Source: a virus. Taken from it: a stretch of 64,000 nucleotides of DNA. Location: IMG/VR virus record IMGVR_UViG_3300045988_121005. The stretch is one strand, 5' to 3'. A program made the translations under genes and the position numbers. Shown here piece after piece: positions 44,938 through 54,959 of this stretch (positions are counted from its first letter, which is position 1; every line of letters starts with the position of its first letter). The notes under the pieces were generated by a model. That model was not told the DNA's origin and ran no database searches. It worked only from the letters and a program-made list of their open reading frames with translations.

Positions 44938-45115
44938 AATCTTTCGTTTTATTGTCTACAAACTTATCTATATCGTCTCTTATTCTTTTTAGCACTCCGG
45001 CTATAATTTCCGGCATCTCTCCTTCGGTACGGTTCAGAGTTTCTATCACCCCATCAATCCTACCAATTTGACGCCATAAGAAATTGGCGTCTTTCGCATT
45101 AAATTCCCTCATCAT
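44924..45115 (-). CDS. Hypothetical protein (63 aa).
   Basis: ORF. Confidence 0.35.
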   Translation of the reverse strand: MMREFNAKDANFLWRQIGRIDGVIETLNRTEGEMPEIIAGVLKRIRDDIDKFVDNKTKDYENI

Positions 45116-45347
45116 GTCTTATTTTACAGTAAACAACTTGCTTTTTTAAGCACCAGTCTTGCGATTCTGAGAGTGAACACCGTTCGGAGTTGTTAAAAAA
45201 TATACAATCTTTGCAGAACATAAGAGGATCTTCGTCGTCACCAACTACTTTGACATCATACTCTATACCATACAATTTTAATCTAAATACATCTCCTGTT
45301 TTTTTAGAAGACAAATCCATGTTCGGACCGAATGTTATTACTTCCAT
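45099..45347 (-). CDS. Small Cys-rich protein (paralogue family).
   Basis: CKDCIF motif; the N-terminus resembles that of ORF 46530..46790. Confidence 0.5.
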   Translation of the reverse strand: MEVITFGPNMDLSSKKTGDVFRLKLYGIEYDVKVVGDDEDPLMFCKDCIFFNNSERCSLSESQDWCLKKQVVYCKIRHDEGI

Positions 45348-45365
45348 ATAATTATGTTTTATTGT

Positions 45366-45452
45366 TTGTGAGATGCCCAGAATCGAACCAGGACCGGCAC
45401 ATACATACCGGCACGCCGCGCCATCCCTCTATGATACACAAATAGACATGCC
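45366..45452 (-). ncRNA. tRNA-like element; a non-canonical or interrupted tRNA.
   Basis: Minus-strand T-arm CCUGG-UUCGAUU-CUGGG, which pairs only in the minus-strand transcript. It is followed by a CAUCUCA acceptor strand. GC-rich island in AT-rich DNA. No full cloverleaf could be folded by hand. Confidence 0.4.
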
Positions 45453-46192: not shown

Positions 46193-46220
46193 TTTTCTTT
46201 CCTCCTTTATTTTTAATATT

Positions 46221-46292
46221 GTGTGAGATCGCCGGAATCGAACCAGCCTACTGCACCATGAATCCCATAAAGCAAATGCTCCGATCTTCGCA
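46221..46292 (-). ncRNA. tRNA-like element.
   Basis: T-arm GCUGG-UUCGAUU-CCGGC. It is compensatory only on the minus strand. It lacks a clean acceptor and D-arm. Confidence 0.4.
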
Positions 46293-46529
46293 GACGGGAG
46301 CACTCTGTCTAAAGCATAAGAAAATTAATGAAGAAAATTCTTCTCACGCCATAGCGTCTAAAATAGATATCAATACCATTTCAATAACGAGCATGATAGA
46401 AAATATCTTAAATGCCTTTTTCATATCGCTATCTCCTCCTTTTTATTTTCACGTTCCACAATAAACTATTCCGGCTCTGCTTTGACCTACGTTCCACCTA
46501 CAACCGCAGGCCTTAGCCCAAGGCGCCGC

Positions 46530-46790
46530 CTACTCCCCCTCTATGGCAGCCTGTTCGTACCTACAAATCCGGTCTCCATCTACACAACTAACACTACGCG
46601 ATAACAAACATTTATCCTTATAACAATCATAAAAAATACACCTCTCACAACCGTAATCCTTAACGTCTACACAGCTAACTACCTTAGCATATACTATACC
46701 ATCACTGCCTTCTATTCCTTTCACCCCAAAAATAGAACCTTCTCCCTCCTTACTCAAATCTAAGTCAGGCGCAAAGTCATATACGTTCAT
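46530..46790 (-). CDS. Small Cys-rich protein (paralogue family).
   Basis: CERCIF motif. Confidence 0.5.
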   Translation of the reverse strand: MNVYDFAPDLDLSKEGEGSIFGVKGIEGSDGIVYAKVVSCVDVKDYGCERCIFYDCYKDKCLLSRSVSCVDGDRICRYEQAAIEGE

Positions 46791-46861
46791 GTTGTTTATG
46801 TTTTAATTGTTATACATTCCGATTACTACTAATCTATAGAATATAGTTTTCAACTCTCAAC

Positions 46862-47029
46862 CTATTGAATTTTGTAGAATAAACTCACATTATGCCGTTT
46901 TAAAGCACTGTAAGTCTTAATTTTGTTGGAAAACCATACATAATGCTGTTTTAAAACGCTGATCTGTTGAATTTTGTTGGAAGGAAGTTGAATTTTGTTG
47001 GAAGGAAGTTGAATTTTGTTGGAAGGAAG
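46862..47029. repeat. Direct repeats: 3 perfect tandem copies of the 21-bp unit TTGAATTTTGTTGGAAGGAAG, plus degenerate upstream copies. Followed by a C-rich tract (47030-47060).
   Basis: Seen directly in the sequence. Lies in an ORF-free region of about 1 kb. Confidence 0.8.
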
Positions 47030-47721
47030 TGCCCTCCCTCCCCCCCTCTCCAACCCCGGCTAATCCTCCGACTTTCTGCATAGAACCTGCGCTCTCGGCC
47101 TCACTACAGGCATACGGAGAGCGCTACAAGCTTATACTATGGCATGGGATATGGGGTGTTTAGAGATAATATCATTCCATAGAGAGAATAGAGAGCCTTC
47201 AGCCCACGCCCTACCGTCTGCTCCTCCTATCAAGATAGATATTCAAACCTATAATCAAAGCCAAAAACAAAAAGCAAAAGACCATTACAACATTATACTG
47301 ATCCGCTCCGTACTCCAACATAGAACGAATACCAACCGACAGAAAATAAAGATCAGCGACTAATAAAAACCACCACATAAAACAAAAAATTTACAATAAG
47401 TATGTCCGAAAATACGGGTATTATAAAACATAACTAATTGATAATCAGACATACCTTATTTTTAAGAAAAATACAATAAGCCTAATTTTCAATCCATAGA
47501 GACGAAAAAGGCGGCATCCGGCACCATATTTTGGGTCAGAAAACCGCCTACAGTTTCGTTTTAGACCAATTTTAACGACAATATATAGACAAAATACCGG
47601 CATTATATCCAAACAGCCTTATTTTTGTTTCGATTTGAACCAATATACGCATTCCTACCTTGTTTGTCGTCGTGTTCACTCTCAGAATATCTTACCCTTA
47701 AATAGAAAGAGTAGGATACGA

Positions 47722-47756
47722 AAATAGGGCTGCTCCGATATTCGGAACAACCCTAT
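47722..47756 (-). terminator. Stem-loop or terminator downstream of the minus-strand ORF 47763..47969.
   Basis: AATAGGG...CCCTATT stem with an inner TCCGATATTCGGA palindrome. Confidence 0.4.
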
Positions 47757-47762
47757 TCCTGT

Positions 47763-47969
47763 TTAAATACTGTTTATGTTCTCCTTCACGTATGTTCGTG
47801 ATGTATGGACTTTACGTTTGCATTTGTCCTTTCCTGTATCGGCATGATACGCTTCTTTGAGATCACGATACAACATAAATTCACGATACGCTCTTTTCCG
47901 CTTTTCTTTAGCTTCTTTCCTGGACAGACCGCGGACGTCTACCATATGAGATTTAAATTTCCTTTCCAT
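47763..47969 (-). CDS. Highly basic small protein (68 aa).
   Basis: K/R-rich ORF. Confidence 0.4.
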   Translation of the reverse strand: MERKFKSHMVDVRGLSRKEAKEKRKRAYREFMLYRDLKEAYHADTGKDKCKRKVHTSRTYVKENINSI

Positions 47970-48186
47970 TTTCTTTATGCTTTAATTATGATTAACCCCA
48001 GCGGTTAAGTGCTTCAATATAGAAACCCTCCGCCTCTTTGTACTCACTTTCGCTTAATGTTTCCACCGTATCTATGTAGTTACGCAATGTTATTTTTACG
48101 CAACTGTTTTTAGATTTATTGAACGCTTCAGTTAAAGCGTTAATCATTGCTTTCTTTTCCATGCTATTATATTATTTATAATTTAG

Positions 48187-48250
48187 AGGTTGCTCTGGAA
48201 TCGAACCAGACACGCATTCCTATTCTATACGAATTTTATGCTACAACCAA
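48187..48250 (-). ncRNA. tRNA-like element.
   Basis: Perfect T-arm UCUGG-UUCGAUU-CCAGA followed by an AGCAACC acceptor strand that pairs with an upstream GGUUGUA. At about 62 nt it is too short for a canonical tRNA. Confidence 0.4.
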
Positions 48251-48746
48251 CAGCCCGTAATTAGTACGTAGTTCTTGTGTACAGGCCCGTACTATGTTGT
48301 TATTATATTTTCCGTCTGCTACACAATTTAGCCACAAATAAAGGCGATTGTGTCCTTGCGTTTTGATACGGCACGTCCCTACATGGTAGGCTACATGCTT
48401 GTACCCTGTAATTTAATCTACAGCCTTGTTCTATTTTTCGTGTAAGCAAGTAAGACACGTTTCGATCTGGAGATAAACCTCATACAACGGCATGTTTTCC
48501 AAACTGTAATCACATACCTAACATAAATCACGCCTATTCGGGTGATTCATGCAGTAATACCAGCCCTTTAATTGCCAACGGCAAGGGCAACGGTATATCT
48601 ATCTCCAATATGTAAAATAACTCTCTGCTTGTCAGCTTCAGTCTAAAGCATACGCGGGACGTGCACCCACTGACAATGGCGTACAGGCGCGTTTTAAGGC
48701 ACGCGTAAAACCTTTGGAGAGCTTAACGGCGCTCTCCATGCCTTTG

Positions 48747-49349: not shown

Positions 49350-49683
49350 TTACAGATACATATATAATTCACCCAACGGGTACACTATATAGATTCACTA
49401 TGTTAACTCGTAATCTCTCTCGATCACGACGCAAATATACGACATTTGTCAATACTACAAATATATATGCTATCTTTTTTTTGTTAATTTGTATTAATTT
49501 CGATTCTATTATCTGATTATCAACAAGTTGTAGAACACACGAGAGCAGTATTATACGCGTACATTAATATGTAGGATATATGCTTATTTAAGTGGCTTAT
49601 AATCAATAGGTTATAATAATACATTGATTATCAATAATTTAAATAAGTGATTGATAATCAGACAGTTTGTAGGTTTAAGGTAA

Positions 49684-49735
49684 AAACGCGTTTACGGTTT
49701 TCAAGCGAAGGGGGTGTGGGGGAGAAAACGCGTTT
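49684..49735. promoter_or_regulatory. Two copies of the 10-bp perfect palindrome AAACGCGTTT, 42 bp apart.
   Basis: Copies at 49684-49693 and 49726-49735. Candidate dimeric regulator-binding sites. Confidence 0.4.
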
Positions 49736-49773
49736 CGGGGGCGGGAGGTTCGTGATAGGTACCCCCTCTCTCC

Positions 49774-49956
49774 CATCACATAAACATCTTTCATATCCCT
49801 CATCACATAAACATCTTTCATATCCCTCATCACATAAACATCTTTCATATCCCTCATCACATAAACATCTTTCTCATATCCCTCATCACATAAACATCTT
49901 TCTCATATCTCTCCCATCACATAAACATCTTTCATATCCCTCATCACATAAAAGTA
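49774..49956. repeat. Tandem direct repeat of about 27 bp (CATCACATAAACATCTTTCATATCCCT), roughly 6.5 copies. Iteron-like.
   Basis: Seen directly. Units are near-identical; some carry a 1-nt insertion. Confidence 0.85.
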
Positions 49957-54820: not shown

Positions 54821-54959
54821 TAAAAATATGCAGGAGTCTTCACAGACGCCTGCATATAACAGCTAAATATTAACTAATAATTATCCTAAAAACTCTCTCA
54901 ACGCAAAGTTAAGTACTAACATACAATATGGCAAACATTAAAGAATAAAAAGGATTAAA

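Follow-up and report, generated by a model that had tools for sequence, protein, structure and literature searches.

Among described systems, iteron origins such as lambda ori, the ori regions of lactococcal and streptococcal phages and P1 oriR/incA come closest to the locus analysed here, a tandem-repeat array next to a C-rich tract in a 64,000-nucleotide stretch of viral DNA (IMG/VR record IMGVR_UViG_3300045988_121005), hereafter called the window. Like this array, iteron origins are single-copy, non-coding direct repeats with internal dyads, helical phasing and bent DNA, and their repeat number differs among related elements. Unlike them, the array has units of 50/51 bp instead of 17–22 bp, no adjacent or overlapping initiator gene, no clear AT-rich unwinding element, a far more variable copy number and a C-rich homopyrimidine tract as its cap.

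Three other kinds of system offer partial parallels. Short-repeat arrays, SRL and SRR, reportedly flank the terminal repeat of phage T7. In T7 and T3, as here, two different short-repeat arrays bracket a junction, are transcribed co-directionally and lie far from any obvious coding role; the T7 arrays, however, are imperfect 7-bp repeats adjoining a 160-bp direct terminal repeat (DTR), whereas the present ones have 27–51-bp units and lie 0.65 and 2.1 kb from a mapped packaging start. Variable-number tandem repeat (VNTR) and contingency loci of bacteria and phages resemble the array in a copy number that differs in almost every strain, in a position upstream of genes and in breaking short-read assemblies. 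The array departs from these loci in having no known phase-variable phenotype, in its long units with conserved blocks, and in lying outside any reading frame and not between −35 and −10 elements. Finally, two origins about 2.6 kb apart have been predicted in prototypic crAssphage, beside DTR-type ends (preprint, PMC10983915), which we take as a parallel only. Both phages are crAss-like phages of Bacteroidales, two candidate initiation sites lie ~2.6–2.7 kb apart near genome ends in both, and in both the GC skew is lowered between them (PMC10983915 for crAssphage). crAssphage differs in belonging to another family and in that its origins are OriFinder predictions beside repL and a toxin–antitoxin system; we found here no RepL homologue and no sequence similarity. 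The comparison may serve as a lead, not as a test.

The window derives from an epsilon crAss-like phage. The region is ~89% identical to crAssE-Sib (OR575929; 151,256 bp; human gut), which belongs among the epsilon crAss-like phages to the proposed genus Epsilonunovirus (PMC11054128), and relatives number well over 100 in IMG/VR, with further hundreds in the protein database. These are common, uncultured gut phages. All genes from ~12 kb to 64 kb of the window lie on the minus strand. The interval of interest, 46791–47762, is bounded on the left by the start of an 86-aa gene and on the right by the stop of a 68-aa gene; it has the lowest coding density of the window and separates the predicted terminator of a leftward operon from a long leftward run of small early-type genes. 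In kind, the locus is a repeat/iteron array in a phage control region. Its repeats go unmentioned in the main text of the crAssE-Sib paper (PMC11054128), and our literature searches found no description of them.

The 21-bp repeats are the youngest end of a hypervariable 50/51-bp minisatellite

The repeats and the adjoining tract occupy the left part of the interval:

46834–46986, no strand assigned: three 51-bp minisatellite units, the leftmost being the oldest and most degenerate
46967–47029, no strand assigned: three perfect 21-bp copies, made up of the final unit's last 21 bp and two extra copies; the youngest part, on the side of the C-tract
47032–47059: the C-tract, CCCTCCCTCCCCCCCTCTCCAACCCCGG

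An earlier note on this DNA, made from the letters alone, had reported three perfect tandem copies of a 21-bp sequence. TTGAATTTTGTTGGAAGGAAG is indeed present three times with zero mismatches (46967–46987, 46988–47008 and 47009–47029), and Tandem Repeats Finder (TRF) delimited the array at 46966–47030 (period 21, 3.1 copies, 100% match, score 130); besides this array, just one other in the 64-kb window scored above 100 (49774–49952). The degenerate upstream copies described in the same note were recovered at 46867–46882 and 46920–46936. The 21-bp period itself, however, had to be revised: alignment of the sequence from the 86-aa gene to the C-tract gave a true period of 50/51 bp, of which the 21-mer is a sub-unit amplified at one end. 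Read across 33 alleles, the unit has the consensus CTACAGAATGCTGTTTTAAAACGCTG-N6-TTRAATTTTGTTGGAAGRRA. A degenerate pattern for this larger unit matched twice, against 0.00 expected from shuffles, and a position weight matrix (PWM) of 55 distinct units scored 46.7 bits at 46885 and 69.7 bits at 46936, with nothing else over 12 bits in either the 64-kb window or the 151-kb crAssE-Sib genome. The unit array occurs a single time per 151-kb genome, and the 21-bp triplet is the youngest end of this single-copy, hypervariable minisatellite.

The array locus was found in every relative examined, including those in which the neighbouring protein is 75–80% identical, and the C-tract accompanied the repeats throughout. 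Across these relatives the copy number ranged from 1 to ~10 units, and 42 spanning loci yielded 34 distinct alleles with lengths of 137–565 bp, which supports, in descriptive terms, a hotspot of recombination, as suspected earlier, or of slippage. Unit ends have been independently re-amplified in several lineages and in differing registers, namely 21 bp (up to ~14 copies), 22 bp, 39 bp or whole 50/51-bp units. Identical recent copies always lay at the C-tract end of the array. The array is a ready-made, highly discriminating VNTR marker for strain typing.

The distal one or two units are old and common to different alleles; in them the motif blocks are retained while the intervening sequence drifts, which argues for constraint on the blocks. 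The blocks common to old and young units are CTACA, TGCTGTTTTAAA (containing the perfect 10-bp dyad GTTTTAAAAC), CTG, the TTRAATTTTG box and GGAA. The array has a GC content of ~31%, and its 21-bp triplet contains no C on the plus strand. AATTTT tracts are spaced 21 bp, or two helical turns, within the triplet, and across the array they recur at 21 bp or ~51 bp, that is, at 2 or ~5 helical turns. Phased A-tracts of this kind imply curved DNA.

The C-tract adjoins the last repeat unit in all alleles and was rightly singled out as striking: it is the only stretch of the window with at least 66% C in 24 nt, and its homologue is likewise the sole one in the 151-kb relative. Being homopyrimidine, it gives a G-rich strand in minus-sense RNA or DNA, and its length varies from 27 to 88 nt, flanks included. 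With four G-runs of at least 3 nt and loops of at most 7 nt as the definition, it holds a canonical four-run G-quadruplex (G4) motif on the minus strand. This is the only such motif in the 64-kb window, and it is present in 17 of the 34 alleles.

Several simpler identities were rejected or look unlikely. The array is not translated, since units of 50 bp occur in one subgroup, allele lengths are spread over every class modulo 3, and the longest open frame spans just 36–59% of the array in several alleles. Its units are contiguous, without the spacers of a CRISPR-like arrangement. Rfam gave no family above threshold and, at E ≤ 10, sub-threshold chance matches only; a scan of bacterial genomes, with a unit pattern too loose for the purpose, returned single chance matches in unrelated taxa.

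A second array lies 2.7 kb away

The minisatellite has a counterpart further along the window:

49706–49750 and 49774–49952, no strand assigned: sister module, consisting of a G-rich block followed by a hypervariable array

The second array is built of 27–32-bp units with the core CATCACATAAA and a CT-rich spacer, present in 3–7 copies across relatives, and its conserved G-rich block holds two AAAACGCGTTT palindromes. The two arrays are the best two TRF matches of the whole 151-kb relative and bracket its largest ORF-poor stretch (ORF, open reading frame), which spans the junction of the crAssE-Sib record. Each module forms a sharp junction on the plus strand between a G-rich, C-poor block and a C-rich, G-poor block, and these junctions are the compositional extremes of the minus-strand gene block. 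In the same part of the window the third-codon-position skews of the co-oriented genes (12000–64000) shift at 46.6–49 kb, AT3 from +0.04 to −0.11 and GC3 from 0.22 to 0.13 (permutation p = 0.0105 in the window).

A putative protein-binding element with features of an iteron origin

Taken on its sequence features, the array is probably a selected protein-binding element and not a coding repeat, a tRNA or a physical terminus, and the protein bound would most likely control replication or early genes. The locus is a candidate cis-acting region for an origin, a terminus or early control, and it adjoins the only experimentally inferred genome end of this phage group. Among the specific functions that we considered, we tentatively rank first an origin-type initiation site working by the iteron-origin mechanism. 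Under this proposal a sequence-specific DNA-binding protein, probably a dimer, would recognise the array as a series of phased sites (iterons) on intrinsically curved DNA, and a phage-encoded initiator would oligomerise on the repeats. The adjacent structure-prone G/C tract, which may be prone to R-loops or G4 on the transcribed leftward strand, would then open together with the AT-rich flanks, and the host replisome would be loaded. The second array, 2.7 kb off, could be another such site. Copy number would shift by slippage beside the tract, and these shifts would be tolerated.

We place an origin first because the PWM unit and the C-tract are unique in the window and the relative, because the motif blocks are conserved even in the old distal units while AATTTT is helically phased, and because the locus is present in every relative examined, with the two arrays ranking as the top two of the genome around its largest ORF-poor stretch. 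Three or more phased direct repeats with a conserved core, as expected of iterons, are present in the form of three 51-bp units and two 21-bp copies, and apart from the two arrays there is no iteron-like element in the 64 kb, which contain the whole replication module. The shift in codon-3 skew at 46.6–49 kb, combined with the junctions of G-rich and C-rich blocks, points the same way, as does the replication gene content of these phages: crAssE-Sib has no DNA polymerase gene (PMC11054128), and its record annotates a sliding clamp, a DnaB-like helicase, a primase and a 'replication factor'.

Other observations weigh against an origin. There is no initiator gene beside the array, where the neighbours lack any family or fold match, and the replication genes lie at least 20 kb from it. 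We detected neither an enrichment of DnaA boxes nor a cluster of them. No marked AT-rich unwinding element directly flanks the array; AT-rich stretches sit 350 bp off (47379–47509) and at 49.45–49.68 kb. The iteron number of proven origins is usually stable among close relatives, whereas here nearly every genome has its own array allele, and some amplifications copy the 21-bp part alone, without the dyad. The skew shift, moreover, is weaker in the relative (p = 0.14) and may reflect gene classes that differ on either side.

Early control as an alternative function

A doubtful but possible alternative is that the units are operator or promoter modules heading the leftward early operon, with copy number tuning early expression. 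The binder would then be a repressor, an activator or a nucleoid protein; otherwise the units themselves would be tandem promoters. The position suits such a role, as the array stands directly upstream of the 86-aa gene and ~40 small ORFs and comes after two terminator-like hairpins and a small transmembrane (TM) gene. The dyad GTTTTAAAAC would fit a dimeric helix-turn-helix protein, and strong promoters typically have phased A-tracts upstream. In TTAATTTTG-type units the plus strand also carries a match to the Bacteroidota −7 box, TAnnTTTG, preceded at 20 nt by a conserved TGCTG. These boxes, however, face right, opposite to all genes, the 21-mer variant TTGAATTTTG lacks the TA, and there is no TTTG −33 box; TAnnTTTG is not enriched in the window either (60 against 67 expected). 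A Bacteroidota sigma-A promoter, with a −7 box, a −33 TTTG 19–21 nt upstream and an orientation facing the gene, was thus not found in the array. Genuine host-type promoters do stand elsewhere in the window, at 49432–61(−) and 54904–35(−), but none of canonical form faces the 86-aa gene, and the array motif occurs in no other intergenic region. From the literature, Epsilonunoviruses encode repressor and antirepressor proteins (PMC11054128), whereas the early transcripts of the crAss-like phage phi14:2, made by its virion RNA polymerase, have no common upstream motif (bioRxiv 10.1101/2020.03.07.982082).

A mapped packaging start lies apart from the repeats

The interval also contains a mapped genome start, with two kinds of conserved sequence close to it:

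47674–47688, no strand assigned: packaging start within the 15-mer GTTCACT/CTCAGAAT (slash, position of the start), conserved in all relatives
47552–47645, no strand assigned: two AGTTTCGTTTTAGACCAAT copies, 74 bp apart and 35–130 bp from the mapped terminus

Position 1 of the crAssE-Sib record was set by PhageTerm (p = 1.5e-22), from a NEBNext ligation library of DNase-treated virions and a pseudo-circular contig (PMC11054128). The end (151256) and the start (1) of that record are contiguous in the window at 47680/47681, position 1 being 47681. The idea that the interval might be a packaging (pac or cos) site was accordingly right in that this start falls inside it, but the start lies ~620–650 bp from the C-tract and the repeats, with a 55-aa gene between. 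Immediately to its left is an indel-rich patch (47648–47673), the only such patch of the region. The second AGTTTCGTTTTAGACCAAT copy is degenerate in this window, and both copies are exact in crAssE-Sib (151143 and 151217). Given the nearer 15-mer, the two AGTTTCGTTTTAGACCAAT copies and the ~650-bp gap, we do not assign a cutting or recognition role to the repeats or the C-tract.

The 17 nt over the terminus (GTGTTCACT/CTCAGAAT; 47672–47688) have a perfect inverted copy at 45164–45180, in an 82-aa gene 2.5 kb off. Both copies are conserved in crAssE-Sib; the inverted one could be a second recognition or nicking site, or a coincidence.

Many IMG/VR contigs, including circular ones of ~150 kb, stop inside the array, and their ends overlap by 34–42 bp of repeat. 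An equal cluster of contig ends was found in the second array (49.79–49.99 kb), and one scaffold has an N-gap inside each of the two arrays. Of ~75 mapped contig ends, none fell at 47680 and just one elsewhere in the interval (47482). The repeat-sized overlaps, the equal cluster in the second array and the lack of ends at 47680 indicate that these ends are assembler breaks at tandem repeats, and we rejected them as physical termini. The fixed pair of break-points in many metagenomic assemblies of these phages is explained by the two arrays, and neither a contig end nor a short 'DTR' located there should be taken for a terminus.

It seems unlikely that the two arrays serve as an accessory to packaging or to the concatemer junction in the manner of T7 SRL/SRR, acting in assembly of the terminase or its small subunit TerS, in junction processing or in control of ejection. 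The start is ~650 bp to the right of the first array and ~2.1 kb to the left of the second, and curved, repeated DNA is typical of TerS sites (SPP1 pac, lambda cosB), which would suit such a role. The 15-mer and the two 19-bp repeats, however, are better-placed candidates, at no more than 130 bp from the cut, a gene occupies the ~650-bp gap, and extreme copy-number variation would be unusual for a terminase recognition site; the failure of contigs to end at 47680 counts on the same side. pac and cos sites typically lie in or beside the small-terminase gene. Judged by the mapped start and the contig ends, no physical end was found at the array, and terS is not adjacent: terS and terL occupy 20.1–23.2 kb of the relative, ~20 kb from the locus. 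A terminus ~20 kb from terS/terL is, on the other hand, what exact-end or DTR phages have, and among crAss-like phages crAss001 has short DTRs and crAss002 uses pac packaging (PMC8042965). For crAssE-Sib itself, PMC11054128 gives just a 'starting point'.

Instability, tunable copy number and RNA structure

We also consider it improbable that the array is a structure-driven, essentially neutral minisatellite. In such a scheme the homopurine/homopyrimidine tract, prone to G4, i-motif or triplex formation, would stall forks, and slippage or template switching would duplicate the neighbouring sequence, leaving repeats with no function of their own. The wealth of alleles (34 at 42 spanning loci) in several registers (21, 22, 39 and 50/51 bp) would follow readily, as would the consistently tract-proximal position of the newest identical copies, the length polymorphism of the tract itself and the G-rich block that likewise adjoins the second array. 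The scheme fits poorly with old, diverged distal units that retain their motif blocks while the rest drifts, with an array kept in every relative at a minimum of one or two units, and with a canonical G4 motif in half of the alleles only. It would account for the instability of the array, not for its origin or retention, and is compatible with any functional reading.

A more remote proposal makes the two modules bracketing the genome end copy-number-tunable controls, for example R-loop- or G4-primed origins, or checkpoints of entry or packaging. If so, expansion and contraction of the modules would produce heritable differences in replication or early-gene strength among co-circulating strains, amounting to a VNTR-based contingency system in an abundant gut phage.

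Least probable of all is an RNA element in the leftward early transcript, in which the G-rich tract and then the G-free, C-rich (CUUCCUUCCAACAAAAUUCAA)n would load Rho, serve as an attenuator or belong to an abundant non-coding leader RNA: the minus-strand 21-mer has no G, 46952–47031 (25 C, 3 G) is the second most extreme minus-strand C-over-G stretch in the minus-gene block, folding is stronger on the minus than on the plus strand, G–U pairs can join the G-tract to the CU-rich end of the unit, and long intergenic regions near the early genes of phi14:2 are among the most transcribed of its genome (bioRxiv 10.1101/2020.03.07.982082), but no Rfam family reached threshold, tract and unit end show no covariation across alleles, and in relatives whose units are all of 51 bp the RNA would contain ~12% G.

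A conserved 55-aa gene and further elements of the interval

To the right of the C-tract, the following features were delimited in addition to the packaging start:

47060–47210, minus strand: spacer with minus-strand hairpins, 150 nt, conservation 82–100%
47211–47378, minus strand: 55-aa gene with two hydrophobic segments (two-TM) and a DRRSRR tail; annotated as a coding sequence in OR575929
47379–47509, minus strand: AT-rich leader upstream of the 55-aa gene, conservation 0.84–0.98
47438–47447, 49514–49523, 49625–49634 and 49651–49660, also 27128 and 33434: copies of TTGATAATCA
47510–47548, minus strand: second terminator-like hairpin, GGCGG...CCGCC followed by a T-run, from sequence and RNAalifold
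47723–47757, minus strand: strong hairpin followed by TTTTCG, RNAalifold −20.0, 2 compensatory pairs

The earlier note had called the whole interval free of ORFs. This holds only in part, and not for 47211–47378(−), where the ORF is intact in 76 of 77 distinct relatives; in the 77th the start codon reads ATA instead of ATG. The three codon positions vary in the ratio 2.27/0.29/6.23, and the substitutions are conservative. The intactness of the frame and its third-position-biased variation identify a real gene, so that a conserved small membrane-protein gene had been missed inside a stretch taken to be non-coding. It is also absent from the gene calls of the contig collection in three relatives, and the match of its product to DUF5455 is weak and sub-threshold. 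Stop-codon recoding, a candidate explanation of the coding gap, is unneeded, as neither the flanking genes nor the 55-aa gene departs from code 11.

The spacer between this gene and the C-tract contains stems at 47140–47210, directly after the gene, and a pair GCGCTCTC/GAGAGCGC at 47090–47125, with a terminator-like site at 47205–47193(−). RNAalifold gave −22.1 for the minus strand against −7.2 for the plus strand, with 2 compensatory pairs; leaving the terminator aside, at most 1–2 such pairs support the spacer hairpins, and the relatives are too alike for a true test of covariation. The hairpin at 47723–47757(−) is, as predicted from its sequence, the intrinsic terminator of the upstream leftward operon that ends in the 68-aa gene (47763–47969). 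Scans for sigma-70 promoters and terminators found no enrichment. Apart from the indel-rich patch at ~47648–47673, conservation over the remainder of the interval equals that of the flanking genes (82–100%).

Against an expectation of 0.37, the window contains 6 copies of the near-palindrome TTGATAATCA. Four of them lie at 47.4–49.7 kb, in AT-rich DNA preceding the 55-aa gene and a 200-aa gene. TTGATAATCA is probably an operator for a phage DNA-binding protein.

Neighbouring genes and tRNA-like elements

On the left, the interval is bounded by the first gene of the early-type run:

46530–46790, minus strand: 86-aa gene, heading a long leftward run of small early-type ORFs in the ORF list

From the start of this gene it is ~45 bp to the oldest repeat unit and ~70 bp to the first recognisable box. 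The gene is conserved in 178 IMG/VR stretches and 516 database proteins, and the order of 68-aa gene, ~1 kb and 86-aa gene is kept at all loci examined. The 86-aa protein has no Pfam or PHROG family, and its AlphaFold2 model (pLDDT 65) has no Foldseek fold match; the ten proteins flanking the array gave no informative Pfam or PHROG match. An 82-aa paralogue (45099–45347, minus strand; 36% identity) lies 1.2 kb further on, and both proteins are Cys-rich and predicted all-beta, without a known family or fold match. Homologues of the NrnA-like neighbour (37–41% identity) stand in other gene contexts, and an equivalent locus was not found in the other genus. The record starts of phi14:2 and crAss001, when compared, held trivial tandem repeats only and no equivalent array.

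Around the interval, gene content varies at two places. At 46211, exactly at a tRNA-like element, most relatives have ~395 bp extra, corresponding to one more gene, and the 56-aa gene at 47992–48162 is swapped for unrelated sequence in some relatives (47984–48151 in the window). Both places are local cassette-exchange points. Two canonical Bacteroidota promoters of the form TTTG-N18–20-TAnnTTTG, at 49432–49461(−) and 54904–54935(−), lie upstream of the 200-aa gene and of a tRNA cluster, and are consistent with a Bacteroidales host.

The tRNA-like elements that had been noticed on either side of the interval are recognisable by the T-arm motif GGTTCGATTCC at 46228–46246 and 48196–48212, but they are not tRNAs by the tools applied. 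ARAGORN at default settings made no tRNA call at these elements, and Rfam found no tRNA in 45.0–50.5 kb even at E ≤ 10; a tRNA or tmRNA identity was rejected on this ground. At an 80% threshold, ARAGORN made weak pseudo-tRNA calls at 45368–45429 and 48186–48256 and left 46210–46300 uncalled. Altogether there are three such elements on the minus strand (~45352–45430, 46210–46300 and 48186–48256), with the GGTTCGATTCC T-arm and an acceptor-like 3′ end, each ~25 nt upstream of a start codon. Judged by sequence and position, they could be mRNA processing signals of the RNase P/Z type. Genes for a Ro60-like protein and a CCA-adding enzyme are also present in the relative.

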